Shown piece after piece: positions 5,056 to 5,176 of a stretch of DNA of 64,000 nucleotides. Both the position numbers and the translations under genes were made by a program. Source of the DNA: Escherichia coli (GTDB lineage Bacteria > Pseudomonadota > Gammaproteobacteria > Enterobacterales > Enterobacteriaceae); assembly GCF_030384885.1 (NCBI RefSeq), contig NZ_CP128613.1, one strand, 5' to 3'. Every line of letters begins with the position of its first letter. The stretch's first letter is position 1. The notes under the pieces were generated by a model. That model saw nothing but the letters and a program-made list of their open reading frames with translations, made no database searches and was not told where the DNA came from.

Positions 5056-5176
5056 ATTGCCGGATGCGATCCGGGCAACAAGTCGGAAACGATTTGTAGG
5101 CCTGATAAGACGCGACAGCGTCGCATCAGGCATTGATTGCCGGATGCGGCGTATAACGCCTTATCTGGCCTACATT
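5056..5176. repeat. REP/BIME palindromic unit cluster
   Basis: Copies of GCCGGATGCGGCGT.AACGCCTTATC.GGCCTACA-type palindromic units downstream of acs. Confidence 0.85.

Follow-up and report, generated by a model that had tools for sequence, protein, structure and literature searches.

As judged from its sequence, the stretch between acs and yjcH is a BIME-2-type REP cluster, in which a decayed Y unit is followed by a Z2 and a Y unit placed head-to-head, inside the acs-yjcH-actP operon. REP/BIME elements have been known since 1982, so that the cluster is real but ordinary and its importance lies mainly in correct annotation. We found units at all five places where a preliminary description of this DNA had put them (after acs, plsB and pepE and in the lamB-malM and malE-malF gaps), and the extent given there for the acs-yjcH cluster (5056-5176) agrees with ours to within 1-3 nt. 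It is very probable that the cluster acts as a set of transcribed hairpins, which would shield the upstream mRNA and partly attenuate read-through, and that it was originally mobilized by a RAYT.

The window, that is, the whole 64-kb stretch of DNA analyzed, corresponds in reversed orientation to the K-12 interval from nrfC to metH, and 13% of it is intergenic. It is 99.98% identical to E. coli strain 2013C-4282 (NZ_CP027579.1), from which it is separated by 8 substitutions and 3 single-base indels; gene coordinates were taken from the annotation of that record and shifted by +1 or +2 beyond window position 16387. A 2.5-kb query around the acs-yjcH cluster was matched in 5423 of 5426 complete E. 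coli genomes, with 100% identity to strain 2013C-4282.

In the 64 kb there are 10 clear REP units, a single degenerate one and two mini-hairpins, each of which is intergenic (Table 1). Units are oriented from the head (GCC.GATG) to the tail (CTAC); their length ranges from 29 to 37 nt, and 9 of 11 have the CTAC foot. The head motif GCCKGATGCG was observed 9 times against 0.54 expected, a number reached by none of 100 shuffles, and the tail motif 9 times against 0.31 expected. REP units were also the four largest families in an unbiased repeat search of the window. An nhmmer profile built from the window units gave 10 matches (E 9e-13 to 1e-6), only within the five gaps, and the next-best match in the 64 kb had an E of 0.03; there is no further full unit beyond the five gaps, and the list of sites in the preliminary description is therefore complete for the window. 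A loose whole-unit regular expression also matched inside coding sequences at 14063, 17013, 19065, 22236 and 58353, and gave mirror-image matches on the palindromic Y units; all of these were dropped. Five coding-sequence matches are a number that random controls also give (100 controls, mean 1.29, maximum 6), and they fail the nhmmer profile.

Table 1. REP units and associated features of the window, with the sites occupied by REPs in K-12 only.
Site	Feature	Position	Strand	Evidence
acs-yjcH	mini-Y (internally deleted Y-type REP, hairpin TTGCCGGATGCGATCCGGGCAA)	5057-5078	+	fold -9.3 kcal/mol
acs-yjcH	Z2-type REP, 36 nt (GCCTGATGCGACGCTGTCGCGTCTTATCAGGCCTAC on - strand)	5096-5131	-	nhmmer E 9e-12
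acs-yjcH	7-nt head-to-head linker (short S-type, BIME-2)	5132-5138		read directly
acs-yjcH	Y-type REP, 35 nt (GCCGGATGCGGCGTATAACGCCTTATCTGGCCTAC)	5139-5173	+	nhmmer E 8.5e-12
plsB/ubiA	Y-type REP, BIME-1 left arm	38358-38391	+	nhmmer E 9.5e-12
plsB/ubiA	L linker, 36 nt, with IHF-like site ATTCAATAAATTG	38392-38427		read directly
plsB/ubiA	Z1-type (short) REP, BIME-1 right arm	38428-38456	-	nhmmer E 1.1e-6
plsB/ubiA	non-REP hairpin GCCGGATGATCATCCGGC + T6	38471-38496	+	read directly; fold -13.2 kcal/mol, z -5.43
lamB-malM (genes on - strand)	Y-type REP	42942-42975	+	nhmmer E 9.3e-13
lamB-malM	Z2-type REP	42990-43025	-	nhmmer E 4.8e-11; inside Rfam naRNA4 match 42993-43063
lamB-malM	Y-type REP, altered foot CCAG for CTAC	43033-43066	+	nhmmer E 4.9e-10
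malE-malF	Y-type REP	47170-47203	+	nhmmer E 9e-13
malE-malF	Z2-type REP	47219-47254	-	nhmmer E 5.8e-12
malE-malF	degenerate Y-type unit GTCGGATAAGGCGTAAATGCTTTATCTGTCCTGG	47262-47295	+	nhmmer weak, E 5.8
pepE/yjbB	mini-hairpin, internally deleted Y-like TGCCGGATGCATGATCCGGCA	60813-60833	+	fold -14.1 kcal/mol, z -4.02
pepE/yjbB (convergent)	single Z2-type REP	60847-60883	+	nhmmer E 1.2e-11
after pgi	Z2+Y BIME, K-12 only	K-12 4235421-4235497; window gap pgi-yjbE 54631-54984
psiE-yjbT	unit, K-12 only	K-12 4240157-4240193; window gap 50266-50479
after alr	unit, K-12 only	K-12 4266888-4266921; window tyrB-alr 22609-24270

The window units agree in sequence with the Y and Z2 published in the REP table of PMC2817692, and the exact consensus Y, Z1 and Z2 units match the definitions in PMC3333891. 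They have the consensus and length of the classical E. coli REPs (Higgins 1982; Stern 1984; Gilson; Bachellier 1999), together with the imperfect palindrome, the internal mismatch, the GTAG/CTAC foot, the extragenic placement at 3' ends and the multicopy nature. Two units differ from these in a mutated foot (43033-43066 and 47262-47295) and the two mini-hairpins in an internal deletion, but nothing essential does. Such elements are to be expected in E. coli, as had been claimed, and K-12 shares all five sites. K-12 holds 584 REP units (PMC3333891), and megablast placed REP copies at a median of at least 4 places per E. coli genome; no curated REP features were returned from the K-12 RefSeq record over the region corresponding to the window.

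The gap between acs and yjcH is 212 nt long, and the mini-Y starts 7 nt past the acs stop codon (TAA 5047-5049), with an nhmmer match to the Y head only (E 0.32). The Z2 unit, whose K-12 copy is identical, forms an RNA hairpin of -21.9 kcal/mol (z -5.65) and the Y unit one of -19.9 kcal/mol (z -4.10); taken together, they fold into one long inter-unit hairpin of -49.1 kcal/mol (z -8.33). The RNA of the whole gap reaches -92.4 kcal/mol against -64.2 +/- 4.4 for shuffled sequences (z -6.4). Linkers equal in length to the 7 nt between Z2 and Y occur at 43026-43032 (lamB-malM) and 47255-47261 (malE-malF), and all three sites share with BIME-2 the inverse Z2/Y arrangement, the 7-nt head-to-head linkers and tail-to-tail linkers of 14-17 nt. 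They carry 2-3 units each, against up to 12 in the BIME-2 REP325. Copy number at acs-yjcH varies between E. coli strains (1, 2, 4 or at least 5 units), as PMC3333891 describes for BIME-2, and a query covering the gap and its flanks was at least 80% covered in 4607 of 5426 genomes.

At the position of the mini-Y, strain 366_BP0076 has a full Y unit that begins at the same base, the Y copy of strain C9 is internally deleted but retains the CTAC foot, and K-12 and SF-088 retain only the Y head because 12 nt are missing. This comparison of alleles identifies the mini-hairpin (5057-5078) as a Y unit that has decayed. At least 359 of the 5426 E. coli genomes carry the allele of the window; K-12 and the majority of E. 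coli genomes lack the mini-hairpin.

Strain C9 also has a variant pair of units at acs-yjcH, with GTCGGAT...ATCCGAC stems in place of GCCTGAT...ATCAGGC. The two halves of the stem are altered together, in the mini-Y as well as in a Z-like unit, which suggests a templated replacement or a distinct REP subfamily.

The plsB/ubiA site (38358-38456) is a BIME-1 (RIB/RIP); it is single-copy, has the order Y-L-Z1 and lies at the 3' ends of two convergent transcription units. Its Y unit starts 12 nt past the plsB stop codon (TAA 38343-38345). The IHF-like site in the linker, a candidate for IHF binding, differs from the usual consensus WATCARNNNNTTR by one mismatch. The L core CTGCAAATTCAATAAATTGC recurs at 35 further places (with up to 3 mismatches) in the fetched E. 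albertii, E. coli and Pseudocitrobacter loci, most of which show the Y-L-Z1 layout. In the lamB-malM gap, the stem of the Y unit with the altered foot begins 13 nt past the lamB stop codon (43076-43078, - strand). At pepE/yjbB, the mini-hairpin lies 6 nt past the pepE stop codon (TAA 60804-60806) and is identical in K-12, and the Z2 hairpin folds with -22.3 kcal/mol (z -4.62).

The malE-malF REP is one of the founding REP examples, and the site in the window (47170-47295) is the very locus of the classical mRNA-stabilizing REP. Newbury and colleagues reportedly showed the stabilizing effect in 1987 for malE-malF, not for acs-yjcH. The window copy, conserved with K-12, starts 11 nt past the malE stop codon (TAA 47156-47158), and the acs-yjcH cluster has the same layout relative to acs. 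The degenerate Y unit at this site has 71% identity to the Y reference copy (repeat family D1) and retains the hairpin fold; it is found in K-12 also. The malE-malF RNA is in use as a structured substrate for exonucleases and RNases.

Individual units of the window fold with -12 to -22 kcal/mol, the strongest at z -4.1 to -5.7, while the two REP units at plsB/ubiA reach only z -1.4 to -2.3. We aligned 18 units, some from the window and the others from the corresponding locus of further strains; standard pairs made up 96.2% of the cells, compared with 25-44% when the partners were slid. Five of the 12 stem pairs are altered on both sides (for instance, Y has G-C where Z2 has U-A), and the GC/TT internal mismatch, which is unpaired, is retained across the aligned units.

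The reading that we favor, that of transcribed protective hairpins, comprises several steps. G+C-rich REP hairpins co-transcribed with the upstream gene would block 3'-to-5' exonucleases and may also be partial, Rho-assisted attenuators, and acs, malE and lamB would be expressed above their downstream neighbors. The action of REPs between convergent genes would be bidirectional. As DNA, BIME-1 may be bound by IHF and BIME-2 by gyrase; binding of IHF to BIME-1, of gyrase to BIME-2 and of Pol I to REPs has been reported (PMC3333891, PMC2817692). For REP325, a dual role as terminator and stabilizer has been shown (2026 preprint). Since REP-bearing genes have no general shift in half-life genome-wide, with a wide spread of effects (bioRxiv 10.64898/2026.03.23.713779), how large an effect there is at acs-yjcH, or whether there is one at all, is not a given. 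The differences between strains in REP occupancy and copy number fit the view that REPs are tunable non-coding regulators of their neighbors.

The last step concerns mobility, in that a REP-associated tyrosine transposase (RAYT, or TnpA-REP) would spread and remodel the elements. The inverted REP pairs of the window share with the REPIN/RAYT system the GTAG foot and the stem mismatch, both of which TnpA-REP needs for binding and cleavage (PMC3333891); recognition of these two features fits the gains, losses and decay of REPs between strains. In contrast to that system, the mobility of the window elements is deduced from strain differences only. No RAYT gene is annotated within the 64-kb window; it is expected elsewhere in the genome, dispersed REPs not requiring one nearby, and the K-12 RAYT gene is yafM (PMC2817692).

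It is conceivable, although we would not bet on it, that the elements are nothing but selfish or decaying mobile DNA of the REPIN type, driven by a RAYT, tolerated close to the 3' ends of genes and without effect on neighboring genes. Consistent with this are the presence and absence of units at three sites between the window and K-12, the range of copy number at acs-yjcH, the decayed units (5057-5078, 47262-47295, 60813-60833 and possibly 50379-50394), and the binding and cleavage of BIMEs by TnpA-REP in vitro (PMC3333891). However, the five sites and their unit types are kept in K-12, the acs-yjcH query is covered in the large majority of genomes given above, and published deletions of single REPs alter the expression of neighbors (2026 preprint). 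Selfish mobility explains the origin of the elements and is compatible with the protective-hairpin reading.

The clusters had been described as marks of operon ends, which is only partly right. Two sites lie between convergent genes (plsB/ubiA and pepE/yjbB), and the three between tandem genes (acs-yjcH, lamB-malM and malE-malF) lie inside operons. The malK-lamB-malM and malEFG operons are textbook cases, and PMC6498577 describes acs-yjcH-actP as a single operon. What REPs mark is the 3' end of a gene and not the end of an operon; they flag these 3' ends in intercistronic gaps too and are therefore unfit for inferring operon boundaries. REPs occupy 5 of the 56 gene gaps of the window (3 of 32 tandem, 2 of 12 convergent and none of 12 divergent), a placement that agrees with the published genome-wide split of roughly 40% tandem, 60% convergent and 1% divergent (bioRxiv 10.64898/2026.03.23.713779). 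When REPs were first described, it was as intercistronic elements (Higgins et al. 1982).

That the clusters are transcription terminators, and mark operon ends as such, is unlikely. The two convergent sites would suit such a role, REPs can be partial Rho-dependent terminators (2026 preprint), and about 40% of the REPs of convergent genes are within predicted bidirectional terminators (bioRxiv 10.64898/2026.03.23.713779). However, 10 of the 12 convergent gaps are REP-free, and the literature on the operons already implies read-through from acs to yjcH-actP and from malE to malF. No T-run directly follows any REP unit in the five gaps scanned, so that none has the form of an intrinsic terminator, and the scan of the acs-yjcH gap gave neither a U-tract terminator consensus nor a promoter consensus. 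The ends of malK-lamB-malM and malEFG have a terminator-like hairpin with T7 instead (41880-41861 on the - strand and 49832-49849 on the + strand, respectively), and no REP is found there; the hairpin and T7 after malG (to 49856) overlap the psiE stop codon, and the K-12 record has the MalH sRNA annotated at the malG 3' end. The T-run at plsB/ubiA (38491-38496) belongs to a separate non-REP hairpin, conserved in K-12, which has the appearance of the true intrinsic terminator. It was missed by the scan for terminator consensus, probably because the stem can be extended by A-T pairs into the T-run.

At all five sites, a unit or mini-hairpin begins 6-13 nt past the upstream stop codon, and REPs whose distance to the stop codon is below 16 nt reduce translation of the upstream gene, according to Liang et al. 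2015 as cited in PMC12306157. As part of the protective-hairpin reading, a unit or mini-hairpin this close (<16 nt) may dampen translation termination of the upstream gene. The mini-Y of acs is missing in most genomes, and any translational role of it would therefore be dispensable. We give slightly less credit than to the terminator explanation to the possibility that the mini-Ys of acs and pepE are selected "mini-REPs" that stall terminating ribosomes and tune the level of Acs allele by allele; if this were true, decay products of REPs would give rise to regulatory variation among strains of the species.

Even more doubtful is that the Z2+Y pairs are genes for nucleoid-associated RNAs of the naRNA4 kind which, acting with HU, would bridge cruciforms in the DNA and compact the chromosome. 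The Rfam model of naRNA4 (RF02564; gathering score 59.5) matches at 5099-5170 with 70.8 bits and at 42993-43063 with 76.9 bits, in both cases on the Z2+Y two-hairpin unit known from REP325, and condensation and REP-REP contacts dependent on HU and naRNA4 have been reported (Qian et al. 2015, PMC4550694). However, the model derives from the Z2+Y repeats of REP325 (PMC4550694), and any BIME-2 pair should be recognized by it; only two of the five sites reach the threshold, the acs-yjcH match runs antisense to the operon, and neither measurable compaction nor a stable ternary complex nor long-range REP-REP contacts were found in a 2026 preprint by the same groups. Annotation of these matches as sRNA genes was rejected, and we take them as cross-matches within the family, since the model fires on ordinary BIME-2 pairs; naRNA4 matches of this kind should not be annotated as sRNA genes. 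That the palindromes are chance G+C-rich inverted repeats and not a repeat family is already refuted, for while the loose regular expression did match five coding sequences, these stay within the random range and fail the profile, the true units are near-identical to each other and to the copies in Pseudocitrobacter, E. albertii and K-12, and the motif counts observed were attained in none of the shuffles.

The preliminary description had also taken the REPs as support for a species-level assignment. The five sites, with the same unit types, are common to the window and K-12, which speaks faintly for this, but the exact Y unit and the Y-L-Z1 layout occur outside E. coli too, and occupancy and copy number vary within it. 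Among the matches listed for the exact 34-nt Y unit, many are in Escherichia albertii and Pseudocitrobacter and one is in Citrobacter werkmanii; one E. albertii genome has more than 50 exact copies, and the Y-L-Z1 architecture of BIME-1 is found at loci of both E. albertii and Pseudocitrobacter. The type of REP sequence thus indicates an Escherichia-like enterobacterium, not a species, and it is by overall nucleotide identity, not by its REPs, that the window is assigned to E. coli.

At three places in this interval, REPs are present in K-12 and missing in the window (Table 1). The BIME after pgi (ca. 144 bp) is cleanly missing in the window, and its flanks in K-12 are the imperfect direct repeats ttaatcaatcgtg and ttaaccgcg. 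Between psiE and yjbT, all that the window retains is what may be a REP head (50379-50394; nhmmer E 0.03). In the tyrB-alr gap, the window has at 22690-24248 two genes that are missing in K-12, which has the REP at that place; they code for an ATPase with an AAA_28 domain (334 aa) and for a PnuC nicotinamide riboside/NMN transporter (185 aa).

Two assemblies from unrelated phyla also gave an exact match to the E. coli-type Y REP, Desulfosporosinus sp. OT on a 262-bp contig and a Bacteroidales MAG on a 3.1-kb contig. The former also has the L linker of BIME-1 with an apparent Z1 unit after it, which is cut by the end of the contig. Both are most likely enterobacterial contamination of public assemblies.

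Other differences were noticed along the window. The single-base indels relative to NZ_CP027579.1 are at 16387, 20881 and 31409. The one at 20881 is an extra C in a C-run of aphA (20364-21078, - strand), which leaves ORFs of 68 and 138 aa, and the one at 31409 is a deletion in the DUF2713 gene of the yjbL/yjbM region (31064-32068), which is annotated as frameshifted in NZ_CP027579.1 and forms an intact ORF of 334 aa in the window. Both could be true strain differences or homopolymer sequencing errors. Between alr and dnaB (25477-26610) there are two ORFs of 186 and 175 aa without a Pfam match, where K-12 has only 52 bp. The xylE gene, present in K-12 between malG and psiE, is missing there in the window (49762-49854), and a gene of the SopA family (pentapeptide-repeat) is intact at 40104-41684, its K-12 counterpart being annotated as the pseudogene yjbI. 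The convergent yjbD and rluF abut without a gap in the window (59032/59033); in K-12 they are separated by about 130 bp (4231227-4231358) with an inverted repeat of the CCCTCACCC...GGGGCGAGGGG type. Could this repeat belong to a different small repeat family?

Three other Rfam families matched above their gathering scores: the sRNA sraL/RyjA at 12423-12563, overlapping the 3' end of soxR, STnc430 at 54827-54976, directly downstream of pgi, and the lysine riboswitch at 56871-57067, upstream of lysC. Finally, the convergent gap between yjcF and yjcE (8782-8839) contains a perfect non-REP inverted repeat of 27 nt with a 4-nt loop. The same palindrome is found in K-12 with 4 mismatches within one arm, and it is probably a bidirectional terminator-like hairpin.
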